A stretch of 47,372 nucleotides of DNA, taken from contig JALHOQ010000004.1 in assembly GCA_022842925.1 (NCBI GenBank), positions 1 to 47,372 on the forward strand, in the 5' to 3' direction. Position numbers and translations under genes: made by a program. This DNA comes from Bdellovibrionales bacterium (lineage in GTDB: Bacteria; Bdellovibrionota; Bdellovibrionia; Bdellovibrionales; UBA1609). Of this stretch, positions 517 through 37,706 are shown piece after piece; the first letter of the stretch is position 1; each line of letters begins with the position of its first letter. The notes under the pieces are model-generated. The model saw only the letters and a list, made by a program, of their open reading frames with translations, did not search any database and was not told the origin of the DNA.

Positions 517-2370
517 GTGAACCCCGTCCAGTTATTCATTCCCATTTTGGCATTAGTTCTCAATTGGCATGGCGTTGTCCAGGCCGGGGAGTGCGACGGA
601 CTTTCCGAGGGGACTTTAGCGCACGCTCAGTGCACTGCATGTAAGAACGGAAATCAGTCTACTGAGTGCCTTCACGCCGTAGATTCATGGTGTAACTCTT
701 TGGGCGGAATGATGTGCTCCAATGCAAGCTGCCAACACATGTCTGCATGCAAGGTGCCGGACGTAAACTGTACAAAAGTCGCCGGGGGAGCTTCCGACTA
801 CTGGTCGTTCGTAAATCAATGCGACGCCTGCGAAAACAAAAAAACCGGTCAGAGCGTGAACACGGTCTCTTGTGCTGACGGTGCGAAGAATTGGTGCTCA
901 AGCAATTGCGAGGATCCGATGTGCGCAACAATGGCTGAATGTGGTGGCGACGGAATAAAAGCCCTTCTGGGTACACCTCTTCCTGTTGAAGGAGAGCGGT
1001 GCCAGCCCGGCCAAACAACCAAAAAAGACGGCACCCCGTGTCCCCGGCCCGGGAATGAAGCGCTGATGCTGATGGGCAATACCAAAAATGCCGGTCAAGC
1101 GAACGCGGCGGCTCAGGCTTGTGAGGCTCTTAAGAATAAAGCCCAGCAGGAATGTCGGGCTGCGGGTGGTTTAAATACGTCGAGTGAACAAGCCAGCCTG
1201 AATGCGATGTGCGAGGCTTATCGCAACGGAAATCTCGAAAACTTCCGACGGCAGCTTCAGTTCGGAGACCGCTGTGGCGTCTCGTACATGGAGTGCAAAA
1301 ACCGGTGTATAGAAGGTGCGGGGGAGTTTGGCCAGTTTCTTCAGCAGTCTTCGCAAATGAGATCTGCGGCGCAGACCTGTCAGAGTTTTTCCGGTGCGGT
1401 GTCCAAATCGGGCAGCTCGGGACTTGCTTCCCTCAGTCAGGCCGAGGTCGGGCGCAAGTGCGATGAACAATCAGCAAGCAGGACTCGTCCTCAAAACGCT
1501 CCGGGTACCACGCCCGGTCCAGCTGCGGGCCCCTCACCCGGCCCGAGTTCAAATCCAGGTACGCAGCAGCCCGCGCCGGGCAACTCCAACCCCACCGGTG
1601 GCGACCAGGCCAGAAAAGCGAACTCTGACAACGGCGGCGGCGGAGGCGGCGGGATGCCCTCACTCCCAAGCCCGCAGAGTTCTTCGCCCTATAATTCAAA
1701 TGCCGCCTACGGCAATGGCGCGGGTTTTAGCAACTGCACGATGGATCCGAGTGCCCCAGGTTGCCAAGCTCAGCAGCCCAAGGAGCAGGTCGCGGAGTCG
1801 GGTCAACAAGGCGGATTTAGGGATGCGGACGAGCGCACCAACGAGAAGAATTTCAATGTAGGCGACACCGGCGGCTTGAACCGCGCCGGTTACAACGGCA
1901 ACGGCGAAGGCGGAGCCCCGAATATTCCCGGAGGCGGCGGACGAGGCGGCGCGGGTGGAGTGCCCAACAACACCGGCGGTGGAATTCCCGGCTCAGACGG
2001 CGGACCAGGCGCCCGCATTCAACCCCAAGCCCGCGGCTATGCCCCCCAGGGCGGCGCGAGCACGGACATTATGCAAGGATTCCAAGGCGGCGGTGGCTAT
2101 AATTACGGTGGAGGCGGCAGCGGCTTCGATGAAGATCGCAGGCGCCAACCCCAAGGCGCCAATCGCGCCCAAGCCCGCGGCCCCGCCAGCCAAGGCATGG
2201 ATCTGCGCCAATACCTTCCCGGCGGCACCATGGACCCCGGCCGCCGCGCCGGCGGCTTTCGCCCCAACGCGCGCATGGACATCAACGCCGCTCACGTCAA
2301 CATCTGGCTCAAAGTAGGCGACCGCCTCCGCGAAAAATGCCGCCTCGGCCTCCTCATCGACTGCCGTTAA
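517..2370 (+). CDS. Secreted Cys-rich / Gly-rich low-complexity protein, 617 aa
   Basis: Signal peptide ending VQA, Cys-rich N-terminal half with an internal repeat, Pro/Gly/Gln-rich linker, ordered C-terminus (MDLRQYLPGG...NIWLKVGDRLREKC). Confidence 0.85.
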   Translation: MNPVQLFIPILALVLNWHGVVQAGECDGLSEGTLAHAQCTACKNGNQSTECLHAVDSWCNSLGGMMCSNASCQHMSACKVPDVNCTKVAGGASDYWSFVNQCDACENKKTGQSVNTVSCADGAKNWCSSNCEDPMCATMAECGGDGIKALLGTPLPVEGERCQPGQTTKKDGTPCPRPGNEALMLMGNTKNAGQANAAAQACEALKNKAQQECRAAGGLNTSSEQASLNAMCEAYRNGNLENFRRQLQFGDRCGVSYMECKNRCIEGAGEFGQFLQQSSQMRSAAQTCQSFSGAVSKSGSSGLASLSQAEVGRKCDEQSASRTRPQNAPGTTPGPAAGPSPGPSSNPGTQQPAPGNSNPTGGDQARKANSDNGGGGGGGMPSLPSPQSSSPYNSNAAYGNGAGFSNCTMDPSAPGCQAQQPKEQVAESGQQGGFRDADERTNEKNFNVGDTGGLNRAGYNGNGEGGAPNIPGGGGRGGAGGVPNNTGGGIPGSDGGPGARIQPQARGYAPQGGASTDIMQGFQGGGGYNYGGGGSGFDEDRRRQPQGANRAQARGPASQGMDLRQYLPGGTMDPGRRAGGFRPNARMDINAAHVNIWLKVGDRLREKCRLGLLIDCR

Positions 2371-2966: not shown

Positions 2967-3773
2967 CTACCAGCCCTTCACATTGGTGAAGATGTACTCG
3001 GCGATTTTTTGACCTTCCAGGAATAATAATAATTTCTTGGGATACCCCGTGGCGGGGTCGATTTCGCTCTCAAACGGCAGGAAAAACTTCGGCACCCGGA
3101 TTTCGACATCACCAGGGTGCTTAAACAACGACTCCAACGTGGGAAACCGATCGGCGTTCGCGGCCCGAATATGATAGGCGAACGTACCGTACTTCTCCTC
3201 TAAATCTTGAATCCGGTCGCCGCGCTTCAATGTCACGGTCGCGTATTCAATTCGCGGTGGAATATGCGTAACAAAACAATTGTCCCCACCCTTAAGACCA
3301 CCGTCAGCGGCCTTACGAAGAACGGGCATGTGATGCCGCAAGATCGTCGCCATATGACGGTACCCCGCCCGGTTCAGGGTAAAGATCTCGCCCTTCAAAG
3401 TGTCCTCGCTAATCAGCGGCACCGAATGGCCCATCAAGGCCCGCGCCGCCTTGTTTTTAAGCGCTCCTAAAAAAGTTGGCTCGCCCCAAACGATTTTCAG
3501 CATGTCGCTGCCGTCGTAGATCAGCTCCATACCGTTGTTCTTAATGCCAGAGGACCCGTCGGCCACGAATTTGTATTTGATGACCTGACCTTCGGTCCAA
3601 AGCTCGATAGGCTCGTCGAGCCATTTGCCGTCTGATAACTCCTTCTTCTGCAAGTGAAGCGAGTACCCTTTAGTTCCAGCCATCTTAGACAGGAACTTTT
3701 CCGCACAAGCCAAAGCCTTTGGATCCGTTTGTGCGAAGGAGATTTGTAAAAGAGCCGTTAACCACAGAATCAT
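2967..3773 (-). CDS. Secreted protein resembling DUF1571 (LolA-like) with a LysM-like insertion
   Basis: Likely start ATG 3773 with signal peptide MILWLTALLQISFA; LysM-like segment TVTLKRGDRIQDLEEKYGTFAYHIRAAN; C-terminal IDPATGYPK...AEYIFTNV. Family assigned by pattern recognition only. Confidence 0.55.
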   Translation of the reverse strand: MILWLTALLQISFAQTDPKALACAEKFLSKMAGTKGYSLHLQKKELSDGKWLDEPIELWTEGQVIKYKFVADGSSGIKNNGMELIYDGSDMLKIVWGEPTFLGALKNKAARALMGHSVPLISEDTLKGEIFTLNRAGYRHMATILRHHMPVLRKAADGGLKGGDNCFVTHIPPRIEYATVTLKRGDRIQDLEEKYGTFAYHIRAANADRFPTLESLFKHPGDVEIRVPKFFLPFESEIDPATGYPKKLLLFLEGQKIAEYIFTNVKGW

Positions 3774-3841
3774 GCGTTGATCATTTCCGTTTGCCTCAAT
3801 GTGAGACACCCCGCAGCCAACAACTGATAACTGATCTCATC

Positions 3842-3857
3842 TGACAAAGCTGTGACA
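3842..3857 (+). promoter_or_regulatory. TGACA-N6-TGACA direct repeat, HemR-type OmpR-family operator
   Basis: TGACA-AAGCTG-TGACA with 11-bp periodicity, 40 nt upstream of the probable hemA ATG; matches the motif described for Leptospira HemR. Confidence 0.8.
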
Positions 3858-3896
3858 AACGAGAGGCTCTCACACGTTAATTTTGATTATACATAT

Positions 3897-4742
3897 ATGC
3901 TTAAAGATTTTCAGGTAATTCATAGGCGCAAGCCGGAGTCTTTTCAGGCGGCAAACCCGTTTATTTGGGAGACGTGCCTGCGTTCAATTTCGTTTACAGC
4001 CGATCCCCGCCATGTCGACTTGCGCGACGGTGACGAGCTTTTTATCAATCATCACGCCTTCCAGTTTATTCTCGAAATCATCTGCGGACTGCATTCGCCC
4101 ATCGTCGGCGAAACCGAAGTATTTGGCCAATTCAAAACCTTCGCTAAAGAATGGCAGCGCCAGGAACCGCGGCGTGCGGCCTTGATTCAGCGGTTTTTTA
4201 CCGATGCTAAAGACCTGCGTTCGCGATACCTCTGCGGAATGGGAACGCAGAGCTACGGCGGCTGGCTGAAGCGCAATGTGCGCGGCGGTGGTGAAGTGCA
4301 TATTGTGGGCGGGGGACAACTCGCCCTCGAAATCGCACCCCACCTGCAAAAGGCCGCGGACCGATTGACCTTGCATGTGCGAAGCCCACAAAAAATTCAA
4401 GCCAAGGGCTCCGTGGTAAACGCGCTCAGCGACAAAGCCTTTACCGCCGGCTCCTCGCTGATTATTGCCGCCCCGATCCAGGCCGCCGATGTGCACTCTT
4501 GGCTGGATGGCCGCTCGCCGCTCGAGATTTTCGATCTTCGCGCGGAATCTAAACACGACCCGCTGACCGTAAAATGTGAGCGCATTCAGGCGCTCGGCGA
4601 TATTTTTGCCGACATTGAGCAAACTAAAGCCCGACTCCTCCCAATCATTGGTCAGGTCAAAAGCGAAATCGCGGCCCGGGGTGAACGCCTCGCCAGCGAG
4701 GTCGTGGTGCGGCCGCAAGGTTGGGATGATATATGCGCCTGA
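3897..4742 (+). CDS. hemA: Glutamyl-tRNA reductase, short form
   Basis: ETCLR catalytic Cys motif, GLHSPIVGETEVFGQFK signature, GGGQLA nucleotide-binding loop. ATG 3897 preferred to GTG 3852, which lies inside the operator. Confidence 0.88.
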   Translation: MLKDFQVIHRRKPESFQAANPFIWETCLRSISFTADPRHVDLRDGDELFINHHAFQFILEIICGLHSPIVGETEVFGQFKTFAKEWQRQEPRRAALIQRFFTDAKDLRSRYLCGMGTQSYGGWLKRNVRGGGEVHIVGGGQLALEIAPHLQKAADRLTLHVRSPQKIQAKGSVVNALSDKAFTAGSSLIIAAPIQAADVHSWLDGRSPLEIFDLRAESKHDPLTVKCERIQALGDIFADIEQTKARLLPIIGQVKSEIAARGERLASEVVVRPQGWDDICA

Positions 4743-6217
4743 AAGTCGCCTCTCGCAAAAGTGATCTCGCCCGCTGGCAAGCCGTGCAAGTCGCCCGCGC
4801 GCTAGAGAAGCACGAACAAAATCCGAGCGCAGAGTTTATTTTTAAAGAATCCCTCGGCGATCAGAATCTCGATCTGCCTTTGGCTAGCATGGGCTCAAAG
4901 GGCGTGTTCACCGAGGACTTCTACGAAGACCTCATCGGTGGGCGCTGTGACCTGGTCGTTCACTCGTGGAAAGACCTGCCAGTTGAACCGCGCCATGAAA
5001 CCGCCATTGTGATGACGCTGCCGCGGGCGGATGTGCGCGATCTTATGCTGGTGCCTGAGGAAGTTTGGCAAGAAGCATGCGCGAATAAGACTCTGAAAAT
5101 CCTCACCAGCTCTCCACGCCGGTTGTATAACCTCTCTCAAATCTTGCCATCTCTTCTGCCTGGCGATGTGAAACTCGAGTTTGTCACCGTTCGCGGCAAT
5201 GTGCCGACCCGTTTACGAAAAATGCATGAACAGAAGGCGGCCTTGATTCTGGCTAAGGCGGGGCTCGACCGCCTGCTCCAGGCGGAAAAAGAAGGTTTTT
5301 TTGAAACCAAGATTTCAGCCTTGATACAGGGCTGTCGCTTTCAAGTGTTCCCCATTAGCGTGAATCCGCCGGCACCGGCCCAAGGGGCCCTGGCCGTCGA
5401 AGTCGCGAAAACCAACGAGACCACTCGCGAAATCTGCGCCGCTCTGAACCACAAGACCACATTTCAATGTGCTGAAGCGGAGCGCGAAATTCTACATCGC
5501 TATGGCGGCGGCTGCCATCAAAAGATCGGCGTCGCTGTTCTCGAAATGGATTACGGCCGGGTTTTGTCGCTAAGGGGCGAAACGGATGCAGGCGAGATCT
5601 TAAATGAATGGAAAGTCGAAAATCCGACCGAGTGGACACGGGCCAAACACGGAGAAAACGTATTTCCTCTTCAGCCCAAGGACAATAGCTGGTTCGAGCG
5701 CCGCTCGCTCGAGCTTAGCGCCGACCTCAGCAGCCGAACCGGATTGATGGTCGCGCGCGCCGATGCCTGGCCCGCGGGTTATAAGCCGAGCGACGGGCAA
5801 ACCGTATGGACCGCGGGAGTGAAATCCTGGCAGAAGCTCGCTGCAGCCGGGATCTGGGTCAGCGGTTGCGCCGATGGCTTAGGTGAAGATGAAGATCCGG
5901 GCCTGCATTGGCTCAACGAATCCATCCAGTGGAGCAAGCTCACCCACAAACAGGCTGCCGGCCCCCGAGATATTGCCACATACGAGCTTCAAGCCAAAGC
6001 CGATGCGCCTGACCTGAATGAAAAAACCCATTTTTTTTGGATGAGCGGTTCGAGCTTTGATCGTGCGCGGCAGCTGTACCCCGACGTGATCCAAAATGGT
6101 CGGCACGCTTGCGGTCCAGGGAACACTTATAAACACCTGAAGGGCATTTCGGGCCTGAAACATCCAGTCAAAATCTTTATCAGCCTCGAGCAGTTTCTGG
6201 CCGAAACTCTTCCTTGA
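4733..6217 (+). CDS. hemC: Hydroxymethylbilane synthase with a C-terminal HemD-like extension (probable HemC/D fusion)
   Basis: SRKSDLARWQA, KGVFT, VHSWKDLP, TSSPRR, VRGNVPTRL and cofactor Cys in GGGCH; about 190 extra C-terminal residues. Confidence 0.92.
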   Translation: MRLKVASRKSDLARWQAVQVARALEKHEQNPSAEFIFKESLGDQNLDLPLASMGSKGVFTEDFYEDLIGGRCDLVVHSWKDLPVEPRHETAIVMTLPRADVRDLMLVPEEVWQEACANKTLKILTSSPRRLYNLSQILPSLLPGDVKLEFVTVRGNVPTRLRKMHEQKAALILAKAGLDRLLQAEKEGFFETKISALIQGCRFQVFPISVNPPAPAQGALAVEVAKTNETTREICAALNHKTTFQCAEAEREILHRYGGGCHQKIGVAVLEMDYGRVLSLRGETDAGEILNEWKVENPTEWTRAKHGENVFPLQPKDNSWFERRSLELSADLSSRTGLMVARADAWPAGYKPSDGQTVWTAGVKSWQKLAAAGIWVSGCADGLGEDEDPGLHWLNESIQWSKLTHKQAAGPRDIATYELQAKADAPDLNEKTHFFWMSGSSFDRARQLYPDVIQNGRHACGPGNTYKHLKGISGLKHPVKIFISLEQFLAETLP

Positions 6218-6232
6218 TAGGAGAGCGAAACC

Positions 6233-7525
6233 GTGAAAGAAAATCCCTCTATGAATTCACAGCAATTATTTGATCGTTCGCTCAAAGTGGCGCCCGGTGG
6301 GGTGCATTCTCCCGTTCGCGCGTTTCGCAGTGTGGGCGGAACGCCGGTGTTCTTCGCCCGCGGTGAGGGCGCCTTCCTCTACTCGGTAGAAGGAGATCGC
6401 TATATCGACTTCTGCCAAAGTTTTGGCCCCAATATTCTCGGTCATCGCGATCCTGATGTGGAGCGCGTGTTACGTGAGACGGTGGAGCTCGGCTGGTGTT
6501 TTGGTACCTGCGAGCCTTATTCGCTAGAACTAGCCGAACTGATTCAGAGTACCGTTCCGTGTGCGGAGCGCGTGCGCTTTGTCTGCTCCGGCACCGAAGC
6601 GGTGATGAGCGCCCTGCGGGTCGCGCGTGCGGCAACGGGCCGGGCCAAGATTTTGAAATTTGAAGGCTGTTATCATGGCCACGCCGATTCGTTACTCGTG
6701 AAAGCGGGAAGCGGTTTGGCCGGCCCCTCGGCTAGCGACAGCGCCGGCGTACCTGAGTTTATCGCTCAGCAAACGCTGGTCTGCCCACTGGATGACGAGA
6801 GTGCTTTTGATCAGGTTATGCAGAAGCACGGCGCCGAGATCGCGGCCGTCATTGTTGAGCCCATGCCGGCCAACTACGGTTTGCTTATGCAGCGGCAAGA
6901 GTGGCTCGAGGCCGTGGTCGCGGGCGCGCGCAAAGCAGGCGCACTGGTGATTTTTGACGAAGTGATATCAGGATTTCGAGTCGCCTGGGGTGGTATGGCC
7001 GAGCGCTCGGGCTTAAAGCCGGACCTAGTAACTTACGGAAAAGTGATCGGCGGCGGACTCGCCGTCGGCGCTTACTGTGGGCGCGCGGATTTGATGAACA
7101 TGGTGGCGCCCGCAGGCAAGGTTTACCAAGCCGGCACGTTGAGCGCCAACCCCCTCGCGATGCGGACAGGCACCGCGACTTTAAATAAAATTCGCTCGAG
7201 TGGCGCCTACGAAGTGCTGGAGCGCCGGACCAAGCGCTTCGTTGAGGAGCTCAACGCGATCTTGAAACCCGTTGAGTTCGGGGCCACGCAGATGGCCTCC
7301 ATCTTCTGGATTCACCCCCAAACTCAAAAACCGATCCGCAGCCTTACCGATCTGCCAGAGGGAATGGGCCAACGCTTTGGTTCGCTTTTCCACACTCTGC
7401 TAAGCAAAAAAATTTACCTCGCGCCGAGCGGCTACGAGGTCGGGTTCGTTTCTCTCGCCCATACCGACGCGATTCTGGATGAAGCTCTCGGGCTGATTCG
7501 TGAGGCGGTGAGTGAACTCCGCTAA
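6233..7525 (+). CDS. hemL: Glutamate-1-semialdehyde 2,1-aminomutase
   Basis: [38 protein letters not shown] (PLP Lys), [10 protein letters not shown]. Confidence 0.97.
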
Positions 7526-8393
7526 CCGTCGCGAGACCATCCGCCTTATTTTGATTATTTGTTGGCTAGTCTTTACGGTTTCCTTCGCTATTTGGTGGTT
7601 CACGCTTACGACTGGATATATTTCGCTTCTTCAGGAACTGCAGCCGGATCAGGGTGAACATTGGCTTCGGCAAAAGCGCATGATTTTTTGGGAGGGCTCG
7701 GCGTGGATCGTGCTTCTCGCTCTCGGCGGCGGCGCGCTGGTGGCACTCGTGCAAAAAGAAAAGTCGCGGGTGAAGCGAATCAAGGAATTCTTCGCCAGCT
7801 TTTCGCATGAAATAAAAACTTCGCTGGCGTCCCTACGCTTGCAGGCCGAAGCCTTAAAAGATGAGTCGACTTCGGAATCGCCGATTCTGGATCGCCTTAT
7901 CGGGGATACTGTGCGCTTGCAGGTGCATCTGGAAAACTCGTTGTTCTTCGCCTCCCAAGATAATCTAAAGCTTTTTATGGAGCCGGTGCAACTGAGCGGC
8001 GTGGTCGAGCGCATGCGTGAACAGTGGCCGAGTTTGAAAATTGAATTGAACCAGGACGTGGTCGTAACGGCGGACGATCGGGCGTTGCGCACGATTCTCA
8101 GCAATCTTCTACAGAATGCGCTGGTTCACGGTCATGCGAGCCAGGTGCAGATTGAGGTCGAGCAGACAGACAACGGTCGAGTTGAACTCTCCATTACTGA
8201 CGACGGCGTGGGCTTTAAGGGTGATGCCGAGGAGTTGGGCCGTCTCTTTCACCGTCCCACTTCCACCAGCGGTAGCGGACTCGGACTTTATATTTGCAAA
8301 ATCCTCATGAGCCGCATGGGCGGTGAGTTTGTCAGCGAGCCCTCCGCTCAGGGATTTAAAGTCGCTTTGGCTTTGCCAGGAGATGGCTCGTGA
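7512..8393 (+). CDS. Membrane sensor histidine kinase (Leptospira HemK/Hklep-like position)
   Basis: Two TM helices with a short loop; H-box SHEIKTSL, N-box NLLQNA, DDGVG and GSGLGL. Confidence 0.93.
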
Positions 8394-9040
8394 CAAAGAT
8401 TCTCTTGATCGAGGATGACTCGTCACTGGGCGCCACCTTGCGCGATCGTTTGCAAAAAGAAGGTTACGAAGTGGTATGGACCCGAACGGTAAAAGCCTCG
8501 AAGGAAGCCGTGGATAAGAGTGAATTTGATCTCTACCTGTTTGACGTAGGCCTGCCCGACGGAGACGGCTTTGAGTTGGCGCAAGCGTTGCCAAAAAAGC
8601 CGTTTATCTTTTTGACCGCGCAAGGAGATGCGGAGTCGCGACTTAAGGGTTACGATCTGGGCGCGGAAGAGTACATTCCGAAACCCTTTCATCTGCGCGA
8701 AGTCCTGCTCCGCATCCGGCACGTCCTCGACAATCATATGCCGGTGCCGGGACTGGAAATCGGAGAGATCAAAGTCAATTTTGATTCTTTTGAATTTTAT
8801 CGCGACGGCGCAAAAGAGCCGATCGCGGTGAAAGACCTCTTGTTACTGAAACTGCTCGTGACGAAAAGCCCGAATGCCGTCACGCGCGACGAAGCTCTTG
8901 GCTGCATTCGGGGTGATGATAAATTTCCCAGCAATCGCACGGTCGACAATGCGATTCTGCGCCTGCGCTCCGCCTTAGGCGACGCAGGTCCGCGGATCGA
9001 GTCCGTGCGGGGAGTGGGTTACCGATGGCGAAAGGATTAA
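8390..9040 (+). CDS. OmpR/PhoB-family response regulator (HemR-like)
   Basis: IEDD, FDVGLPDGDG (phospho-Asp), FLTA, KPF, winged helix RTVDNAILRLR...VRGVGY. Confidence 0.95.
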   Translation: MTKILLIEDDSSLGATLRDRLQKEGYEVVWTRTVKASKEAVDKSEFDLYLFDVGLPDGDGFELAQALPKKPFIFLTAQGDAESRLKGYDLGAEEYIPKPFHLREVLLRIRHVLDNHMPVPGLEIGEIKVNFDSFEFYRDGAKEPIAVKDLLLLKLLVTKSPNAVTRDEALGCIRGDDKFPSNRTVDNAILRLRSALGDAGPRIESVRGVGYRWRKD

Positions 9041-9044
9041 TACC

Positions 9045-10064
9045 ATGAATACGAGATTTCAGAATGCATTGAAGGGTGTGGCCCAGCCCATTCCACCGGT
9101 CTGGTTTATGCGGCAGGCGGGTCGGTACCATAAACATTATCAGGCCCTGCGCCGCGAGCACTCGTTTGTGGAGCTTTGCAAAAAGCCCGAACTGGCAGCC
9201 GAAGTGGCCATGGGTCCCATTCGTGATTTCGACTTCGATGTGTCGATTTTGTTTAGCGACTTACTTTTTCCACTCGAAGCTCTGGGAATGGGTTTGACCT
9301 ACGACCCGGGACCCAAGCTGGGATGGAACCTGACTGAGGAGCGGCTAAAAGAGCTGCGCCCCCATGCGACGGCTCTCGCCGATCTACAGTTCCAGAACGA
9401 GGCGATGAAGGCGACCCGCAAAGTCTTGCCCTCGGAGAAAAGCCTGATCGGCTTTGTCGGTGGGCCATGGACCTTGTTTACCTATGCAGTAGAAGGCGAG
9501 CACAAGGGCAGTTTGATCAAAGCGAAAACACACTGGCGCCTGTATCATAAGTTTTGTGAGTCACTGTTGCCCTTGCTGGAATCGAACATTCAGCTGCAAT
9601 TGGACGGCGGGGCCGAAGTGGTAATGGTGTTTGATACGGCGGGGGGCGAGTTAAGCCCGGCGCTCTTCGTGCAGAATCTGGAGCCGCATTTGCGGAAGCT
9701 AGCGGATCGTTTTCCCGGTAAGCTCGGCTACTACTCCAAAGGAACCACATCCGCCCATCTGCGCTCGATCAAGACCTGCACGACCTTCGCTGGGTTTGGC
9801 GTCGATCACCGATTTGATATGGCGGAAGAGCTGAAAAATCATCGCCATGGATTTCTGCAGGGGAACTTCGACCAGGCCCTGCTGTTTTCTTCACCGCAGG
9901 ATTTTGAAAAACAATTGGAGCTGTATTTGACCGAGTTGCGGTTGCTGACGCCTGAGCAGCGGCGGCACTGGGTTTGTGGTTTGGGTCACGGCGTTCTACC
10001 GGCGACGCCCGAAGAAAACGTGCGTCGTTTCGTGAAGCGGGTGCGCGAGGTGTTCAATCTATGA
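9045..10064 (+). CDS. hemE: Uroporphyrinogen decarboxylase
   Basis: PVWFMRQAGRY, ILFSDLL, LIGFVGGPWTLFTY, LGHGVLP. Confidence 0.97.
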   Translation: MNTRFQNALKGVAQPIPPVWFMRQAGRYHKHYQALRREHSFVELCKKPELAAEVAMGPIRDFDFDVSILFSDLLFPLEALGMGLTYDPGPKLGWNLTEERLKELRPHATALADLQFQNEAMKATRKVLPSEKSLIGFVGGPWTLFTYAVEGEHKGSLIKAKTHWRLYHKFCESLLPLLESNIQLQLDGGAEVVMVFDTAGGELSPALFVQNLEPHLRKLADRFPGKLGYYSKGTTSAHLRSIKTCTTFAGFGVDHRFDMAEELKNHRHGFLQGNFDQALLFSSPQDFEKQLELYLTELRLLTPEQRRHWVCGLGHGVLPATPEENVRRFVKRVREVFNL

Positions 10065-11413
10065 ACCTCTCGCAGCTCGTTAAAAAGTATGATGTCCCCG
10101 TTCCCCGCTATACAAGCTATCCGACCGTTCCTTATTGGTCGGATTCGCCTACGTCCGAGGAGTGGATTCAGTCTTTAAAAAGAGCCATGGTGAATGAGAA
10201 CAGCACCTTTGCCCTCTATGTTCATATCCCGTTCTGCGAGACGCTTTGCACCTTCTGCGGCTGCAACACGGTGATTGGTAAAAGTCATGAGCGCGAAGTT
10301 CCCTATGTGGGGCACTTAGTAAAGGAATTTGAAAATTATCTGCGCCAGGTTCCCGCGATCGGCAAAAAGCCGCTGCGACAGCTGCACTTGGGCGGCGGCA
10401 CTCCGACATTTCTCTCATCCGAAAATCTCGCCACGCTTGTCGGTTCCATTCTTGAAAAATGTGTAATCGATCTTAGCCACTTCGACGCCAGCGTGGAAGT
10501 GGATCCCCGTCGGACCACGGCTGAGCAACTTAAGGTCCTCTACGATCTCGGATTCCGAAGAGTCAGCCTAGGCGTTCAGGATTTTGATCCAGAGGTGCAG
10601 CGGTTGGTGAATCGGATTCAACCATTCGAAGTGACTCAGCGCCTGACGAATCAAGCGCGCGCGATGGGCTACACTTCGGTGAACTACGATCTGATTTACG
10701 GTTTGGCCAAGCAGACGCCGGATTCCTTTCGCGTTACCATCGATCAGACCATTGAACTCCGACCCGACCGCATTGCCCTTTATTCGCTGGCACTGGTGCC
10801 ATGGATCAAGCCTCAACAGCGTCTGTTCAAAGATGAAGACCTGCCGTCGGGGGCAGAGAAGCGAGCCCTTTATGAAATGGCCTATCAAAAGCTGATAGCC
10901 GCTGGCTATGTCGAGATCGGCATGGACCATTTCGCTCTGCCGAACGACGCCTTGGCCGTGGCTTTGAAAACCGGCGGCTTACACCGCAACTTTATGGGTT
11001 ACACCGAAATGCGGACCGATGTTCTACTCGGACTCGGCGTCAGCAGTATTTCTGAAACGCCGGACTGCTTTCATCAGAACGAAAAGGTTTTGCCCGTTTA
11101 TGAGAAAAAAGTAACGGCGGGCGAAGTCCCGACTTTGCGGGGACATAAGCTTACGCCCGAAGATCGCCATCACCGCGAACAGATTTTGTCGTTTATGTGC
11201 AAAGGCGAAGTGCGAATGTCCTCCAGCCCACAAGTCGAAGACGTTAAGTCGTTTTTAACTGATATGATTCAGGATGGTTTGGTGCGAGTGGAAGGCGACG
11301 TATTGAGGCTGACCGATCAAGGTCGGCCCTTTCTGCGCAACGCTTGCGTGGCGCTGGATCGCCGTCTCCGCGACAAACAACCCTCCACCCGGATTTTTTC
11401 ACAAGCCCTATGA
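10061..11413 (+). CDS. hemN: Oxygen-independent coproporphyrinogen III oxidase (radical SAM)
   Basis: PRYTSYPT, YVHIPFCETLCTFCGC, GGGTPT, IGMDHFA, RNFMGY; ATG 10061 overlaps the hemE stop (ATGA). Confidence 0.96.
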   Translation: MNLSQLVKKYDVPVPRYTSYPTVPYWSDSPTSEEWIQSLKRAMVNENSTFALYVHIPFCETLCTFCGCNTVIGKSHEREVPYVGHLVKEFENYLRQVPAIGKKPLRQLHLGGGTPTFLSSENLATLVGSILEKCVIDLSHFDASVEVDPRRTTAEQLKVLYDLGFRRVSLGVQDFDPEVQRLVNRIQPFEVTQRLTNQARAMGYTSVNYDLIYGLAKQTPDSFRVTIDQTIELRPDRIALYSLALVPWIKPQQRLFKDEDLPSGAEKRALYEMAYQKLIAAGYVEIGMDHFALPNDALAVALKTGGLHRNFMGYTEMRTDVLLGLGVSSISETPDCFHQNEKVLPVYEKKVTAGEVPTLRGHKLTPEDRHHREQILSFMCKGEVRMSSSPQVEDVKSFLTDMIQDGLVRVEGDVLRLTDQGRPFLRNACVALDRRLRDKQPSTRIFSQAL

Positions 11414-12618
11414 AGGTTACGATTGTCGGCGCCGGTTTTGCCGGACTCACACTGGCTTACCAACTTTTAGAGCAGGGGATTGAGTGTGAGATTATCGAAA
11501 AGCAGAATAAGGTCGGGGGGCTGATCGACACCTTGCCCGATGAGAACGGCATGGTCGAGACGGCAGCCAACGCGCTCATGTCCGATCGCAATGTCGAGAA
11601 TATGTTTGCGGATTTGAATTTGAACTTCGCCGAACGCCTACCGGCGGCCAAGAAACGCTATATTTTCTGGGAGAAGCCCACGCGCTGGCCCCTCACGTGG
11701 TCGACTTCATTTAAGGCCTCAAAAGAGTTATTTAAAGCGTTTGTTCGGGGCGACGAAGAAGCGTGGCCCGAAAGCGGCGAGAGTATTGAAGAGTGGGCGA
11801 CTCGCCTGGTGAATGAAGAGTTTTGTGAGCGCCTCGTCTCTCCCGCCTTGCAGGGTATTTATGCCGGCGACATCCGCAAGCTGAGCGCGACTTTGATTTT
11901 GAAATCCATGCTTAAAGATCGTCCGCCCAAAGGGGATTTCAAAGGCAGCGTGGCCCCGCCCGGTGGAATGGGCGAACTTATGGATAAACTGGCCGGTTAC
12001 CTCGAGCAAAAGGGCTCGCCGATTCAACTCAAGACGGCGTTCACCATGCCGGACTATATCACCAACCCCCTCGTAATCGCGACCAGCGCCTGGAATGCCG
12101 CGGAAATATTGAAAACGGCGAAGCCACTGATCGCACAGGTTTTGGAGCGGTGCGAGTCTCTGCCTTTGATCCGCGCGGTGTGCTTCTTTCAGCCCACCGA
12201 CGACGACCTTGAAGGGTTCGGTTGTCTATTCCCGACCAAAGAAAAGTTTAACAGTCTCGGTGTACTCTTTGATAACTGCGTTTTTGCTGAACGCTCACAA
12301 GTCCGGGCCGAGAGTTGGATTATCGGCGGCGCCCTTAATCCTTCCGCTTTGACCGCGAGCGACCCAGAAGTGATCGAGGCCATTGTAGCCGATCGCGCTC
12401 GAGTGATGGGGAGCCATGCTCGTCCCCTGACGTATCAGATTACGCGCTGGCAGAGGGCCTTGCCACATTACACCTGCGCGTGGGAAGACGCCCTTCGTGA
12501 CTTAAAGAACGAGCCGCCACTTTATTTGCATGGCAATTACCTCGGCCAATTGGGGTTGAGTCGAATTTTAAACCGGTCAGTTACTCTGGCCGCAGAAATC
12601 AAGGCGAACCATGGTTAA
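11410..12618 (+). CDS. hemY: FAD-dependent protoporphyrinogen oxidase, HemY type
   Basis: VGAGFAGL FAD motif, GIYAGD, GFGCLFP, RWQRALPHY, LHGNY; ATG 11410 overlaps the hemN stop. Confidence 0.9.
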   Translation: MKVTIVGAGFAGLTLAYQLLEQGIECEIIEKQNKVGGLIDTLPDENGMVETAANALMSDRNVENMFADLNLNFAERLPAAKKRYIFWEKPTRWPLTWSTSFKASKELFKAFVRGDEEAWPESGESIEEWATRLVNEEFCERLVSPALQGIYAGDIRKLSATLILKSMLKDRPPKGDFKGSVAPPGGMGELMDKLAGYLEQKGSPIQLKTAFTMPDYITNPLVIATSAWNAAEILKTAKPLIAQVLERCESLPLIRAVCFFQPTDDDLEGFGCLFPTKEKFNSLGVLFDNCVFAERSQVRAESWIIGGALNPSALTASDPEVIEAIVADRARVMGSHARPLTYQITRWQRALPHYTCAWEDALRDLKNEPPLYLHGNYLGQLGLSRILNRSVTLAAEIKANHG

Positions 12619-13639
12619 AAAACCCGGACTACTATTACTGCAACTGGGATCTCCCGCTGCGCCCACGCCCGGTGCTATATACAAGTTTTTGACTGAATTT
12701 TTGACCGATCCCCAGGTCATTGATATCCCGGCGATTCCGCGGCACTTGCTCGTGCGCGGAGTGATCGCTCCGCTGCGCTCACGCCGAGTGGCGGAGGCCT
12801 ATAAGTCCATTTGGACCGAAAAAGGTTCTCCGCTCATGCTCTACACCCAGGACTTCAGCGAAAAAGTGAAAACCGCGTTGGAAAGGCGCTTCGACGTCCG
12901 CTGGGCCGTTCGCTACGGTAACCCCTCGGTGAAGTCCGTGCTTGATGACTGGAACATAAACGAACTCTATGTTGTACCGCTCTATCCGCAGTACGCCCTA
13001 TCGAGCAGTCAGACGGCGATGGATCAAGTCAAGGACCTGGTGGCCAAGTCGGGCAAGTCGATCAAGATGTTTTTCTTGCGTGATTTCTTTGTCGAGCCCG
13101 AGTTTATCCACAGTCAAACGGCGCAAATTCTCGAGGCCGCGCGCGAATTTAAGCCCGACCACTATCTCCTCAGCTTTCACGGCCTTCCCGAACATCACGT
13201 AACCAAGCTCCATCCCGACAAGTGCTTTGTGCAGGCGGGTTGCTGCGAAAAAGTCACCAGCTCGAACCGTTGGTGTTACCGTGCACAGAGCATGGCCACA
13301 GCGCGAGCGTTGAAGGAGGCTCTGGGCCTTACCGGCGGACAGATGTCAGTCGGCTTTCAATCCCGATTAGGCAATCGACCGTGGATCAAGCCCTACACCG
13401 ACGAGCTTCTGCCGAAACTGGTCGAAGACGGCGTGCGCCGCCTGTTGGTGAGCTGCCCCTCATTTGTGTCCGATTGTTTGGAGACGTTAGAGGAAGTGCA
13501 GATTCGCTTGAAAGAGCAGTTTCTTGAGCTGGGTGGCACGGATTTAAAACTCGTTCCGGCGTTGAATGCCGAAGACCACTGGGTCGATGATTTTAGCCAG
13601 ATGTTGACCCGCCACAATCTGCATTGGTGGGAGTCGTGA
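12611..13639 (+). CDS. hemH: Ferrochelatase with an internal Cys insert ([2Fe-2S] type)
   Basis: LGSP, RYGNPS, PLYPQYA, SFHGLP, FQSRLG..PWIKPYT, FVSDCLETLEE; insert C-X5-CC-X9-C. Confidence 0.96.
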   Translation: MVKKPGLLLLQLGSPAAPTPGAIYKFLTEFLTDPQVIDIPAIPRHLLVRGVIAPLRSRRVAEAYKSIWTEKGSPLMLYTQDFSEKVKTALERRFDVRWAVRYGNPSVKSVLDDWNINELYVVPLYPQYALSSSQTAMDQVKDLVAKSGKSIKMFFLRDFFVEPEFIHSQTAQILEAAREFKPDHYLLSFHGLPEHHVTKLHPDKCFVQAGCCEKVTSSNRWCYRAQSMATARALKEALGLTGGQMSVGFQSRLGNRPWIKPYTDELLPKLVEDGVRRLLVSCPSFVSDCLETLEEVQIRLKEQFLELGGTDLKLVPALNAEDHWVDDFSQMLTRHNLHWWES

Positions 13640-15472: not shown

Positions 15473-18400
15473 ATGCGTAGGTTGATTAGTCTCACCGTTT
15501 CGTTGGCGCTCACGTTTCAATCGCTTCTCGCGATTCCGGCGTTTGCGCACGACAATTCGCAACCGGGGGTTCAGACAGGTGTTCGCGGCAGTCCCGTCGC
15601 CAGTGAACACGCGAAAGCTTGGGTTCACGCGGTCGACCCCAGTTCCATTTGGGACACGCCGACAGTCGACCGGGCTCCGGGCGAGCTCGAAAAACTTTGG
15701 GTCGATGCCCTGCAGAAGACCAACGGCAATCCACTCTCCCGCCAAGTCAGCGATGCGGACAAAGCGGCTTACTTCAACATGTGGATCGAACGTCTGCGCC
15801 ACAACGCCTTCGCGCAAGGTTCCGCTGATCCGGAATCCCGTTACTACTCCAACCACCCTCTTGACGTCTTTCAGCTGCTCGGCCAACGCGTGCATGTCAA
15901 GAATGAGCAGGCCGTTTTAGACGGAATCGAAGCGGGTAAACCGATTCTGAATCTCGTCGATTGGCAAAAATTAACTCTGACGATTCTCGATCAGCAAAAA
16001 AATCCCATCCTGCGCATCAATCCCGAAGGCCGAGACATTCGCCATCTGATCCCTGAAGATCGCGTCATTTCGCAAGGTCGCTCCTTCAGCACGGACTCCA
16101 CGACCGGAGCCACTCCGGGCGGCCTTTACACCTTTGAACTGAGCGCTCAGGGTCGGACCCTTCACTCCTTTCAGAACAACGTGAATTCGGTCGCGGTGAT
16201 TGGTCAGTATCTCGTGTTTTTGGAACCGTCTCGCGCGTTGGCTGATCACGGGGTAGTAAATCTCTCGTTTATCGATCTCGAATATTTCGAATCGGCTCTT
16301 GGTAAAACAGTACTGCCGGTTTTCCGCGTTCCGCTCGAAATCGGCGATCTGGCTCGCCAGCCCGATAAATTGAACCTTCGCTACACCCCTCAAGGCCTCG
16401 AAATCGGCGACAAGAAAATCTCGCCCGAGGTTTTCGAATTTTTCAGTCACTTGCAGCAGATGCCGTTCAACATGATGGTGTCGCTGACGGATCCGCAAAC
16501 TTATAAGACCTCAGCGCCGCTCGTCACCGAACTGATTGAAACATGGAACGAGGCTATGGAAGACCAAGCCAAGTCCATGGAAGCGCAATTCGAATCCGCC
16601 GGGATATCTTTCGATCTGATGCGCAAGTTCCAAGCGACCCAAATGGAAGAGTTAAAGCTCCGCTCCCAAGTGGGGGCGAATACCGCGGGCGGACCTCATG
16701 AAAATCTGACCAAAGCCAAAGACCAGCTGGAGCTCGAGGCCCTCGCCTCACTCGATAAAATTATTTTAGAAAACAACGGCGAAGAGGGCGTTGTGGACAT
16801 CGGGGAGTATCCGACTCCTCTCGCTCAGGATGCCAAAACCGCGACGGCCATGCGACTTCAAGCGGCCAAGGCTTTGGGTGAGCGCATCTCGCTCGATGTG
16901 AAAGCTCATACCGCGAAAACGAAAAAGTTTGGAGTGGAGCTCGTCGCCGATGCCGCATTCCAAACCGCGATGCAGAATTTTAACCAAACGATCGCCAAGC
17001 AGCGCAAACTCAGCAACCGCATGACCGCCTTCTGGTCGCGCTTGACCGTTCCCCAGCCGCTCGGCGCACCCAAAATTCAACAGGCCTTGGGTATGATCGC
17101 GGCGAGCGTTCATCACAAGGACTCGCAGGCCACCGAAGGTCTGGACCGATCCGCTTTGGCGCGAGAGGGCATCGCCCGGCTTCTCGCCAACGGCAAGGCC
17201 CGCATCGCTCTTCCTGTTTTGATTGGCGCGGGACTCGCCGCCATTTATCCAGCCGAAGCCGGCCAGTTTTACTATCAAGCTATAGAAGGCGTGCGCACCA
17301 GCATGGACGCCGTTCTGGGTTGGACCTCGAACTGGGGTTACTTAACTTCTGAAGCCTGGACAAAATCTTGGGCTTGGTTAAATGGCCAAGTGCTCGTGAG
17401 CACCTACTGGGTAGGTAACAATTTTGCCAACTTGATGACGGGACTTTCGGCTTTGATGGGCGGCTTGCTGCTGGCGGCGGGCGGACTTCACGTCGTGGTG
17501 AATACGACCACCTTTTTGAAGTCCATGATCAAGGGAGGTTGGAAAAAGTATCGGCAGGAAAATCTGTTTTGGCTGAGTCAGGCCAAGCGCTCCTTCATTC
17601 AGTACATCAATGAGGATAAGAAGGCCTTCTATGAGAGTCTAGCGCGAGCCGAAGCGAAGAAGCGCGGGCTCGAACTCCAGATATCCGGACGAGCCGACGG
17701 ACCTGGATTTAAAGGGGTTTTTCAAGATACGGCATTGAACGATCATACGGTTCTTTCCAAGGCCGAGCTGGAGCATAAGCCTCTCGAAATCGAGCTTCGT
17801 AGTGCCGACGGTCGCTACAAAGTTAAGGGAGTGCTCCACGCCCGGGGCGATCGCCATCATCCCAATTACACAGACGCCGACATAAAAGCTCGCGCGTGGA
17901 ATCTTTTCGATCTCACTCTTGCGGACGGACACAAACTGTCCCGCGCGCTGGAGATCACCGAGGGCGATACCGATCGTTTGTTCTCCGACGAGAATCTAGA
18001 AGCGGGCATTAATGTCGCCGTCAAATCAGAAAGAGGCGAAATGGTCGCCCGGCTGCAGAACTTGAACTGGACCGCCAATGAGAAGGCCGAACTGGATGGC
18101 GTGATGCACTCCCTCGAGGAGGCGGATCGAAAATGGGCCGCCAAGATGGAGCGTCTGGCGGATTTGCCCCTGATCGGCCGGTTCTTTAAGAAGTCTGATG
18201 GAGAGATCCGAACTTTGGGCAAGGCCCTCGGGCACTTCGCGATCGGTTATTCTTCGTGGACACATTCAACGCGCTTGTTTGGTAAGATTTGGAATCCATG
18301 GTTCTTGGTTCGGAATATCGCATTCCGCCCACGTACGTGGATGACCATGATGGTATATCCGAACTACTTTAATCGCACCGTCTTTGGCGCCAAAGAAGGA

Positions 18401-20032
18401 CACTTCGCGACCCAGTACAATGGTGGTAAGCGCACCCTTTTGGAGCTGCAGCTGTGGCAGAAGATCGGCGGATTTGTAATCGGCGATCAAGACGTGAAGA
18501 GTTTCTTAAAAGAACTGAACGAGTTCGAAAAAGAAGTGATTCCGATTGAGCAAACCTTGCACGCGGCCGCGATGCGCGCAGCATTCTTAAAGTTCGTGCA
18601 AAAGGGCGCGGAAGACGCCGATGTGGCGCGATTTCTAAGGAAGGGCGCGATCGTCGACCCGATGGATCCCCGACTGAATAACTCGGGCGCCATAAAAGGC
18701 GCGGTAGGGGCCGTGGGTCACGCGGTCTTCGGCAACGGAAGCTCCTCGGATAAGATCGACAAGAAATTGTCGGTTTACTTTAAAGCGTATTTCACAAAAC
18801 TTTACGACGACTCGATGGACGCCTACTTCCGCAAGGCTTTAGGCCCTCAAGCCGAGGGCCTGAGTACCAAAGAGTTGAAGGTGCTCGCGATTCAGAAAGA
18901 AGTGGATCTTAAAGTATCCGACGAGGACGCGATTGAGCTAGTTAAGGAAGTTGAATCCCGTGGTGAGGTTGAGCAGTATGCATCTCAGACGGCGGAAGAC
19001 TTCTTCGGCGGCGCCTGGGAGCGCATCAAGCAGACGCATATGTTTAAAGTGCGAAAGGCGCTCGATCCGTCGCACAACTACTCACTTAATCGCTATAAAA
19101 CGGCCGAGATTCAGATGGATAATCCCGAGGCCATGGCTCGCGCGACTCGCCAATATCTGGTGTCGTTGGTGGTCGATAAGCCAATGGAATTGATTTTCCT
19201 TCTACTCTTTGTCGCGGCGGTGGATCAGGGCGTGAACAAGCCTCTCCATGATGCGGCTTTTAGCGAGAACTCGCTCTTCCATATGTCACGGATGGTGTTT
19301 TGGAATGGTTATTTCACGGGCATTATGATCGCGCTCTTGGCGGATGTTTGGATGAAAATTCAGATGGACGCGCGGCTTGATCAGACCGGCGGTTTTGATG
19401 ATGTGGCCGATCAGGCGGACGCGAAGAAAGGCTTCTTGGCCTATTATCGCAAGAGCTTCTTCGCTAAAGACAATACTTGGTGGAGTAACCAGAAGTATGA
19501 AGTGAAGTTATCGCTGGCGAATATGCCGGCTTATTTCCTCACGGCATTGGTGACCAACTTGGCCTTCCTAGGGAGATTCGATTTAGACTCCTTCGTTACC
19601 GTGTATAAATCCATCCTGCTTCCCACGGGCGGGTTGGCGTTTAAACTTGAAAACTCCTTCGAGAAGTCGACGGCGTATGTGCTGGGGCGTGTGCCAGTGA
19701 AGTTCCATGTCGATCCGCGAGTTCGTGAGTACCGGAACAAAGCGATTGGAAAGCTGCGCTTTAAGTACAACCTGGTCTATAAGGCCTATGAGAACACCGT
19801 TTCGTCACTGCTCGGAAACTTGTTTAACATCACAACCGAGAAGCTTGGGCCCCGTTCGTTTGTACGTCAGTTCTACGGAGGATACTTTCCGACAGAATTG
19901 TTGGTGAATAACGTTCTTCGCCCTGTCGGTCGCTTAGGCGGCGTCTTTGAGAAGGTTGCCGCAGGTTGTGAGTTGTTCCTTACGAATAATCACACCGATG
20001 CGGTGAAGATTGAACCCAAGAAACCAAATTAG
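15473..20032 (+). CDS. Very large exported/membrane protein of unknown function, 1519 aa
   Basis: Uninterrupted 4.5-kb ORF; signal peptide ending AFA; two clusters of hydrophobic helices; no recognised catalytic motif. Confidence 0.9.
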   Translation: MRRLISLTVSLALTFQSLLAIPAFAHDNSQPGVQTGVRGSPVASEHAKAWVHAVDPSSIWDTPTVDRAPGELEKLWVDALQKTNGNPLSRQVSDADKAAYFNMWIERLRHNAFAQGSADPESRYYSNHPLDVFQLLGQRVHVKNEQAVLDGIEAGKPILNLVDWQKLTLTILDQQKNPILRINPEGRDIRHLIPEDRVISQGRSFSTDSTTGATPGGLYTFELSAQGRTLHSFQNNVNSVAVIGQYLVFLEPSRALADHGVVNLSFIDLEYFESALGKTVLPVFRVPLEIGDLARQPDKLNLRYTPQGLEIGDKKISPEVFEFFSHLQQMPFNMMVSLTDPQTYKTSAPLVTELIETWNEAMEDQAKSMEAQFESAGISFDLMRKFQATQMEELKLRSQVGANTAGGPHENLTKAKDQLELEALASLDKIILENNGEEGVVDIGEYPTPLAQDAKTATAMRLQAAKALGERISLDVKAHTAKTKKFGVELVADAAFQTAMQNFNQTIAKQRKLSNRMTAFWSRLTVPQPLGAPKIQQALGMIAASVHHKDSQATEGLDRSALAREGIARLLANGKARIALPVLIGAGLAAIYPAEAGQFYYQAIEGVRTSMDAVLGWTSNWGYLTSEAWTKSWAWLNGQVLVSTYWVGNNFANLMTGLSALMGGLLLAAGGLHVVVNTTTFLKSMIKGGWKKYRQENLFWLSQAKRSFIQYINEDKKAFYESLARAEAKKRGLELQISGRADGPGFKGVFQDTALNDHTVLSKAELEHKPLEIELRSADGRYKVKGVLHARGDRHHPNYTDADIKARAWNLFDLTLADGHKLSRALEITEGDTDRLFSDENLEAGINVAVKSERGEMVARLQNLNWTANEKAELDGVMHSLEEADRKWAAKMERLADLPLIGRFFKKSDGEIRTLGKALGHFAIGYSSWTHSTRLFGKIWNPWFLVRNIAFRPRTWMTMMVYPNYFNRTVFGAKEGHFATQYNGGKRTLLELQLWQKIGGFVIGDQDVKSFLKELNEFEKEVIPIEQTLHAAAMRAAFLKFVQKGAEDADVARFLRKGAIVDPMDPRLNNSGAIKGAVGAVGHAVFGNGSSSDKIDKKLSVYFKAYFTKLYDDSMDAYFRKALGPQAEGLSTKELKVLAIQKEVDLKVSDEDAIELVKEVESRGEVEQYASQTAEDFFGGAWERIKQTHMFKVRKALDPSHNYSLNRYKTAEIQMDNPEAMARATRQYLVSLVVDKPMELIFLLLFVAAVDQGVNKPLHDAAFSENSLFHMSRMVFWNGYFTGIMIALLADVWMKIQMDARLDQTGGFDDVADQADAKKGFLAYYRKSFFAKDNTWWSNQKYEVKLSLANMPAYFLTALVTNLAFLGRFDLDSFVTVYKSILLPTGGLAFKLENSFEKSTAYVLGRVPVKFHVDPRVREYRNKAIGKLRFKYNLVYKAYENTVSSLLGNLFNITTEKLGPRSFVRQFYGGYFPTELLVNNVLRPVGRLGGVFEKVAAGCELFLTNNHTDAVKIEPKKPN

Positions 20033-32338: not shown

Positions 32339-34449
<2,111 letters not shown>

Positions 34450-37520: not shown

Positions 37521-37706
37521 ATGATTCGCTGGAACGCCGGTTTCATTCGTGGTTTGGCCGAAAGCGTGCTCGCAAGAGCACGCGTGATCCGGAGTTCCCT
37601 CACTCAGTACAACGCGAGCGGCACGCAAGATCCCGCTGCGAAACAGCGGAAGCGCAAAAAAGCCGCGGTCAAGCGGGCGCGCACGCCTCGCCGGCCCAAT
37701 GGATAA
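37521..37706 (+). CDS. Possible small basic protein bridging secF and queC
   Basis: ATG directly follows the secF TAG and its stop overlaps the queC start region; Arg/Lys-rich; no recognised family. Confidence 0.35.
   Translation: MIRWNAGFIRGLAESVLARARVIRSSLTQYNASGTQDPAAKQRKRKKAAVKRARTPRRPNG

Follow-up and report, generated by a model that had tools for sequence, protein, structure and literature searches.

An operon for haem synthesis, which contains the genes of a histidine kinase and a response regulator and is preceded by the direct repeat TGACA-N6-TGACA (hem-box), was analysed in a stretch of 47,372 nucleotides (nt) from a Bdellovibrionales bacterium (assembly GCA_022842925.1, contig JALHOQ010000004.1, positions 1 to 47,372). 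The whole of this stretch is called the window in the following. In its open reading frame (ORF) map, nine genes of the plus strand follow each other between positions 3897 and 13639, either overlapping or at most 15 nt apart. Pfam and NCBIfam assignments gave the order hemA-hemCD-hemL-kinase-regulator-hemE-hemN-hemY-hemH; no hemB was found in the operon or elsewhere in the 47,372 bases. A preliminary description had placed a kinase/OmpR-regulator pair between hemL and hemE, and an exact copy of the repeat 40 nt upstream of the hemA start. Both statements are correct: the pair (7512-9040) lies between hemL (6233-7525) and hemE (9045-10064), and the box ends at 3857, 39 nt before the hemA ATG at 3897. 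The features of the operon and of its promoter are the following, with sizes in amino acids (aa) where given.

3825-3839, no strand assigned: Fur-type 7-1-7 palindrome TGATAACTGATCTCA, 2 nt 5' of the hem-box, retained as a lead only
3842-3857, plus strand: hem-box, direct repeat TGACA-N6-TGACA, proposed site of the phosphorylated regulator (motif and conservation)
3876-3883, plus strand: putative -10-like element GtTAATTT, hexamer at 3878-3883 (box-anchored promoter alignment)
3897-4742, plus strand: hemA, putative short divergent glutamyl-tRNA reductase, 281 aa (Pfam GlutR_N, 30.4 bits; structure-profile matches)
4733-6217, plus strand: hemC/hemD fusion, 494 aa (TIGR00212 hemC, 186.9 bits, residues 3-280)
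6233-7525, plus strand: hemL, glutamate-1-semialdehyde aminomutase (NF000818, 520.8 bits)
7512-8393, plus strand: HemK-like histidine kinase (Pfam HisKA and HATPase_c)
8390-9040, plus strand: HemR-like response regulator of the OmpR/PhoB type (Pfam Response_reg and Trans_reg_C)
9045-10064, plus strand: hemE (PF01208, 273.4 bits)
10061-11413, plus strand: hemN, oxygen-independent coproporphyrinogen oxidase (TIGR00538, 429.4 bits)
11410-12618, plus strand: hemY/hemG-type protoporphyrinogen oxidase (TIGR00562, 147.2 bits)
12611-13639, plus strand: hemH, ferrochelatase, last gene of the operon (PF00762, 291 bits)

TGACA-N6-TGACA is matched exactly only once in the window, both strands considered, by TGACAAAGCTGTGACA at 3842-3857. 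Shuffled windows contained 0.03 exact boxes on average, and one match or more was present in 3 out of 100 shuffles. A scan of the window for further hem-boxes, allowing one mismatch, returned three sites against 1.58 expected, a number reached by 13 of 100 shuffles, and none of them was judged credible.

The first gene of the operon is accepted as that of a putative short, divergent HemA. Its product matches the Pfam GlutR_N model weakly, although above threshold (30.4 bits for a cut-off of 27), scores 20.5 bits for a cut-off of 209.55 with the NCBIfam hemA equivalog and is about 130 residues shorter than the NCBIfam hemA models. When it was searched as a single sequence, glutamyl-tRNA reductase was not among the solved-structure matches; when a profile of the family was used, the top three matches were all glutamyl-tRNA reductases (1gpj, E-value 7.7e-5; 4n7r, 1.5e-4; 3oj0, 0.013). 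Members of the family range in size between 239 and 298 residues, among 120 listed of 350 short-HemA matches, and share invariant TCLR and GETEVFGQFK motifs and a glycine-rich stretch (G138/G140). In the sources, the listed relatives are named either 'glutamyl-tRNA reductase' (JGI) or 'hypothetical protein [Bdellovibrionales]'. As start codon the ATG at 3897 was preferred over an in-frame GTG at 3852, which falls inside the hem-box, because all 27 aligned homologues start at the column of that ATG.

Conservation of the box and of gene order in related loci

Related loci were collected by searching species-representative genomes once with the alignment of the HemA family, and the best 80 of 149 relatives were retained. 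According to their titles, 72 are from Bdellovibrio or Bdellovibrionota-type bins; among them are complete genomes from cultures of B. bacteriovorus and Bdellovibrio sp. The closest locus (L001, an uncultured Pseudobdellovibrionaceae) shows 70-89% protein identity to the window along the operon. The contig ends too early to show the kinase/regulator pair in 19 of the 80 loci; wherever both genes are visible, the order hemA-hemCD-hemL-kinase-regulator-hemE is found (60 of 60).

Eight titles name other groups, namely Opitutaceae (L013), Acidobacteriota (L023), Alphaproteobacteria (L046), Devosiaceae (L048), Hyphomicrobiales (L054), Gammaproteobacteria (L059), Bacillota (L061) and Deltaproteobacteria (L079). 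L046, L048 and L054 are three separate bins, and the regulators of L048 and L054 cluster together in the overview tree described below. These eight loci, together with a regulator relative from a bin titled Calothrix sp. (P0072), reflect either mis-binning or real spread.

DNA upstream of hemA is present in 78 of the 80 loci (all except L070 and L072). An exact hem-box was found there, on the strand of hemA, in 75 of the 78; L015 and L023 have one mismatch, GGACA in the first half-site, and only in L059 is no box within one mismatch present upstream of hemA. Among the carriers of the box are laboratory strains of B. bacteriovorus (L030, L062 and L067). The prediction of the preliminary description that the motif would be conserved upstream of hemA in relatives is thus borne out. 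L059, titled Gammaproteobacteria, is also the only locus which extends for 10 kilobases downstream and yet lacks the pair; there the short hemA is directly followed by hemE and hemN, and hemCD, hemL, kinase and regulator are missing.

Counted on both strands, the collected loci (1,253,016 bases in all) contain 78 exact boxes, where base composition would predict 2.5. A position no more than 130 nt upstream of hemA is shared by 76 of them; the other two (L046, 660-675; L048, 5114-5129) are about 150 nt upstream of hemH, which in both loci precedes hemA. The distance from the end of the box to the estimated hemA start codon has a median of 33 nt and is between 26 and 40 nt in 69 of 75 loci. Identity of HemA to the window protein drops to 30% in loci which keep an exact box. 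When the 78 promoters are aligned, the half-sites are in exact 11-nt register, while the six spacer bases between them vary freely. Such conservation, strong and position-specific, is what would be expected of a binding site.

A third half-site, in the form TGACA-N6-TGACA-N6-TGAAA, is found in 20 loci, all belonging to Bdellovibrio proper (for example L030, 9950-9976); it could serve a larger regulator assembly or be a -35-like element.

The position of hemB varies. In L023, L028, L046, L048 and L054 it lies between hemCD and hemL, as in Leptospira, and its product shares 52-54% identity with HemB of L. interrogans. A further 39 loci, mostly of Bdellovibrio proper, carry hemB on the opposite strand upstream of hemA, with 35-41% identity to the same protein; in L030 this divergent hemB starts about 100 nt away. 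In loci of the latter type, the hem-box in the shared hemB/hemA intergenic region could serve both genes.

Relationship to the HemK/HemR system of Leptospira

For comparison, a locus (L081) was taken from L. interrogans, two replicons of which are filed in the plasmid collection. The order of genes in L081 is 'hypothetical protein' (289 aa), hemC/D fusion, hemB, hemL, kinase, regulator, hemE, hemN and hemG, with hemH on the opposite strand. What the preliminary description stated on Leptospira is accurate: in L. interrogans the pair lies between hemL and hemE, and the hem-box TGACA[N6]TGACA is bound by phosphorylated HemR (PMC11426443). Linkage of the pair to haem-synthesis genes is thus common to the window, to the 60 of 60 related loci showing both genes and to L. 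interrogans.

The regulator contains the Pfam domains Response_reg and Trans_reg_C, as expected for the OmpR type. Its best relative of solved structure is 4q7e, presumably the receiver domain of L. biflexa HemR, with an E-value of 3.6e-33 against 8.2e-23 for the next match. The candidate phospho-acceptor is D52 in DLYLFDVGLPDGDG, as read from the translation aligned to the Leptospira-type receiver domain. Identity to the regulator of the L. interrogans hem cluster is 48%; in the plasmid collection, where at least 5000 records were matched, this protein scored 200 bits and the next match listed 102. The recognition helix NRT[VI]DN[AS]I[LV]RLR is common to the window regulator and the Leptospira-type sequences; where this helix has Ala or Ser, the nearest other OmpR-family sequences mostly have an aromatic residue. 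Named sources of the best relatives (at least 61% identical) are metagenome genomes of Bdellovibrionales or Pseudobdellovibrionaceae, with the exception of the bin titled Calothrix sp. (69% identical).

Two trees were built for the regulator. An overview FastTree comprised 170 sequences, namely the 62 regulators of the window, of 60 loci and of L081, and 108 of the 150 best cluster representatives, the other 42 being left out for falling outside 200-262 residues. All locus regulators and that of L081 were found in one clade of 120 sequences, with 98% local support. A more careful IQ-TREE analysis was performed on 55 sequences, hand-picked from the 170 in order to span the overview tree. Here the window regulator and the L. 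interrogans hem-cluster regulator belong to a clade of 36 sequences supported at 99/99 and separate from the other OmpR-family sequences; grouping with Leptospira HemR, anticipated by the preliminary description, is therefore recovered. Within the clade, L081 and three representatives (P0248, P0251 and P0267) group at 98/87, and the remaining 32 sequences at 84/61. This last split is weak, and the Leptospira-type group may be either a sister of the Bdellovibrionota sequences or nested among them. A profile made from 37 representatives detected 5770 proteins at E-values up to 1e-30; four organism names occur among the 120 listed, all of Bdellovibrionota.

The kinase consists of two membrane helices (hydrophobic segments near residues 8-34 and 61-82) separated by a short loop, and of HisKA and HATPase_c domains; a Pfam scan revealed no PAS or other sensor domain. 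The H-box, SHEIKT, contains H99 and, at position H+4, T103. In L. biflexa HemK the corresponding features are H98, T102 and an N-terminal part described as the 'first 80 amino acids' (PMC11426443, PMC2266917), and H98 and D53 have been established as the phosphorelay residues of kinase and regulator, respectively (PMC2266917). The window and L. interrogans kinases are 39% (38.7%) identical over 292 aligned positions starting from residue 11, both membrane helices included; each has WW where helix 1 ends, RM..EG ahead of helix 2, and SHE.KT. In the plasmid collection, the Leptospira kinase scored 179 bits, against at most 88 for the other matches listed.

Short HemA and HemE also have their best matches in this collection in Leptospira. 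Short HemA is 32% identical to the 289-aa 'hypothetical protein' heading the L. interrogans hem cluster, and its only two matches in the plasmid collection are both Leptospira records. HemE is 55.7% identical to the L. interrogans protein, and none of the other 73 matching records of that collection exceeds 32.5%. Identity to L. interrogans is 61% for HemL, 57% for HemN and 40% for HemCD (530 aligned positions), and much lower for HemG/HemY (28%) and HemH (26%). At the L. interrogans hemA promoter, TGACACTTCTTTGACA ends 37 nt before the ATG and is followed by TGgTATAGT, one base closer to the box than the corresponding element of the window.

The window system therefore resembles HemK/HemR (LB014/LB015 in L. 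interrogans) in several respects: an OmpR-type regulator and a small two-helix HisKA kinase with H and with T at H+4; the location of the pair between hemL and hemE, in an operon headed by the putative short HemA and a hemC/D fusion; and TGACA-N6-TGACA placed 37-39 nt before the hemA start codon and followed by a -10-like element. It differs in belonging to another phylum, in the operon without hemB, and in hemH, which is co-oriented at the end of the operon in the window but lies on the other strand in L. interrogans. In L. biflexa, differently from the window, the hem genes and the HemK/HemR (Hklep/Rrlep) pair are at separate places (PMC2266917).

In Leptospira, phosphorylated HemR binds the hem-box and has been proposed to activate hem genes and to repress hmuO; 5-aminolevulinic acid stimulates the phosphatase activity of HemK through T102 and so lowers hemA in L. 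biflexa (PMC11426443). In kinase and regulator mutants of L. biflexa, hemA, hemE and hemL transcripts are reduced 2- to 10-fold (PMC2266917).

Occurrence of the system outside spirochaetes, as stated in the preliminary description, is not new: that the pair is linked to haem genes in Bdellovibrio bacteriovorus was mentioned in 2008 as data not shown (PMC2266917). Within the searchable literature, the term 'hem-box' was found only in PMC11426443 (2024) and in its preprint, and no report of hem-box conservation in Bdellovibrionota was found, although a remark in Morero et al. 2014 is possible. To the extent covered by this literature, the near-universal exact hem-box across Bdellovibrionota and the promoter layout common with Leptospira appear to be new. 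The hem-box itself was reportedly defined by Morero et al. in 2014 (Mol Microbiol).

Promoter layout, mode of control and origin of the operon

When the 78 promoters were anchored on the hem-box, a consensus g.TAa..t emerged at columns 19-26 after the box, corresponding to the element at 3876-3883 of the window; no separate -35 element is conserved at proper spacing in this alignment. If the -10-like element is real, the hem-box would span about -48 to -33 and overlap the -35 region, and only a few bases would separate the hemA start codon from the transcription start, leaving a very short leader. An arrangement of this kind is known from PhoB, a regulator of the OmpR/PhoB family, which binds direct repeats with an 11-nt register replacing the -35 element and activates transcription. 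The window regulator most likely works like PhoB on its own 11-nt-register repeats; the window pair differs from PhoR/PhoB in the sequence of the repeat, in a kinase devoid of PAS and in a context of haem rather than phosphate. Two-component control of haem homeostasis genes is also exerted by HssRS and ChrSA/HrrSA of Gram-positives, which sense haem itself and mainly control its export or degradation; no search revealed a specific relationship of the window pair to them, although their sequences were not compared directly.

Gene content and order, the orthology of regulator and kinase, the conserved and position-specific box and the layout shared with L. interrogans make it quite probable that the window pair and its operator are the orthologue of Leptospira HemK/HemR, set in a nine-gene haem-synthesis operon. 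The membrane kinase would autophosphorylate on H99 and then transfer the phosphate to D52 of the regulator, which in this form would bind TGACA-N6-TGACA (3842-3857) as a head-to-tail (tandem) dimer over the -35 region, and would aid RNA polymerase at a promoter lacking its own -35 element, in the fashion of PhoB at the pho-box. Transcription from hemA through hemH would include the kinase and regulator genes and, as these lie inside the operon, the system would control its own level. If L. biflexa is a guide, the kinase would be switched to its phosphatase mode, through T103, by 5-aminolevulinic acid or by a porphyrin formed later; with the regulator dephosphorylated, hemA transcription would fall.

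Several observations weigh against parts of this model. Binding, activation rather than repression, transcription start, short leader and signal are carried over from Leptospira and from the layout, and the putative -10 element and transcription start are placed from the alignment alone; a simple sigma-70 scan with spacers of 16-18 nt called no plus-strand promoter at 3876-3883. Together with the base before it, the downstream half-site reads GTGACA and agrees with the -35 consensus TTGACA at 5 of 6 positions; part of the conservation of the box could thus reflect promoter function. The association between a missing pair and a missing box comes from a single locus, L059. As to Leptospira, PMC11426443 reports no significant change of the hemA operon in a hemKR deletion strain of L. 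biflexa, and a level about 8-fold above wild type in this deletion under iron limitation; the sign of control is not simple even in that species. In addition, the L. interrogans regulator failed to complement an L. biflexa regulator mutant (PMC2266917), and orthologues are therefore not freely interchangeable.

The main alternative keeps the orthologous pair and the box, but has the regulator act mainly as a repressor which blocks polymerase at -35, so that loss of phosphate switches synthesis on. It would fit a box overlapping the -35 region, if the proposed -10 is right, as well as the proposed repression of hmuO by HemR in Leptospira and the level of the hem operon above wild type in L. biflexa without hemKR under iron limitation (PMC11426443). 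The promoters, however, show no conserved -35-like hexamer of their own at proper spacing, as is typical where transcription depends on an activator; moreover, L. biflexa mutants in kinase and regulator have 2- to 10-fold less hemA, hemE and hemL transcript (PMC2266917), and 5-aminolevulinic acid, by which HemR is dephosphorylated, lowers hemA (PMC11426443). Repression as the main mode is considered unlikely.

Much less probable is that the TGACA repeat is core promoter sequence, for example a -35-like hexamer and its upstream duplicate, kept for the binding of polymerase, rather than the site of the neighbouring regulator. The 5 of 6 match of GTGACA to TTGACA and the position of the repeat, always about 60 nt or less from the start codon, speak for it. 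The TA...T motif, however, starts 21 nt after the box, giving a 20-nt spacer outside the 16-18 nt of the sigma-70 scan; both half-sites keep the exact 11-nt register around variable spacer bases; the motif is identical to the published HemR site (PMC11426443); and only two other copies, both upstream of hemH, occur in 1.25 megabases, which must contain hundreds of promoters. A plain -35 element was rejected as the identity of the box on its spacing and on the rarity of the motif elsewhere. Slightly more remote still is an ordinary PhoR/PhoB-like or envelope-stress pair which merely resides among hem genes and has other targets. Some source annotations of relatives do read 'phosphate regulon response regulator PhoB', and the best NCBIfam models are those of PhoB and PnpS/PhoR; against this, the regulator scores 121.5 for a cut-off of 270 and 107.9 for one of 296.2, and the kinase 69.4 for a cut-off of 400. 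On these curated PhoB cut-offs, and on that of PhoR (66.2 for 334.2), membership in PhoB/PhoR was rejected. The kinase without PAS or other sensor domain, the hemL-hemE position kept in 60 of 60 loci, and the 99/99 clade shared with the Leptospira regulator and distinct from other OmpR-family sequences also argue against such a pair.

Returning to the HemK/HemR-like promoter, the palindrome TGATAACTGATCTCA next to the box may offer a second input. The degenerate pattern, which was derived from these same promoters, has its sole match in the window at 3825-3839, where it reads on both strands. The site shows four mismatches to the canonical Fur box; four mismatches or fewer are found in about 3% of random 62-nt windows. 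The same palindrome is present at the same 2-nt gap to the box in 12 of the 14 closest loci (L001-L014), and in L. interrogans TGAAAATTAGTCTCA is placed 30 nt upstream of the hem-box (L081, 2251-2265). PMC11426443 ascribes the iron response of the hemA operon in Leptospira to additional factors yet to be identified, and the Fur-type palindrome may be this missing iron-responsive input at the hemA promoter.

Conservation of operon, regulators and cis-element as one module between distant phyla, put forward in the preliminary description with lateral transfer as a possible cause, agrees with the shared short HemA, HemE at 55.7% and kinase at 39% identity, and the same layout of the L. interrogans promoter. 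The near-universal exact box, the common promoter layout, the shared short HemA and the unusually similar HemE, HemL and HemN together point to the stretch from promoter to hemN as one transferred or very old unit. Lateral transfer is plausible, in either direction and of whatever age; the split between the Leptospira-type group and the rest has support of only 84/61. In a wider reading, to which slightly less than an even chance is given, the hemA-hemN enzymes, kinase, regulator and promoter (box, -10-like element, short leader and perhaps the Fur-type box) moved as one unit between the ancestors of Leptospira and of Bdellovibrionota, and each phylum has since kept the cis-element unchanged to the letter. 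In members that are predators, which the organism of the window is not known to be, haem precursors set free from the prey may be read by the kinase and so time the predator's own haem synthesis.

HemKR, studied only in Leptospira, thus gains a second, very large natural set, which includes cultivable and genetically tractable Bdellovibrio strains and provides a first testable handle on the control of haem synthesis in Bdellovibrio-like bacteria. The 75 exact boxes, in which the spacers vary freely, mark out the bases that matter; the invariant recognition helix and the membrane part of the kinase point to the needs of DNA reading and signal sensing. Regulator, sensor, target genes and operator are found together across two phyla, a clear case and a useful one for considering how regulatory circuits travel.

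Neighbouring genes of the window

Upstream of the operon, a divergent ORF of 280 aa (2967-3809, minus strand) has no Pfam or NCBIfam match; it starts 33 nt from the hem-box, and the intergenic region which separates it from hemA is only 87 nt long. A minus-strand promoter-like site, CTGAAA-17-TATAAT at 3886-3914, faces this ORF. Homologues were seen only in L001 and L003, where they lie about 900 nt from hemA. Further upstream, a protein of 617 aa (517-2370, plus strand) without Pfam match shows, by eye, a hydrophobic N-terminus resembling a signal peptide, a Cys-rich first half and a tail rich in Gly, Pro and Asn. Downstream of the operon, an ORF of 1519 aa (15473-20032, plus strand) also has no Pfam match. 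The genes secD and secF are flanked by the queuosine genes queA, tgt and queC and by a gene for a DUF366 protein (32339-34449 and 37699-38927), an ordinary housekeeping context.

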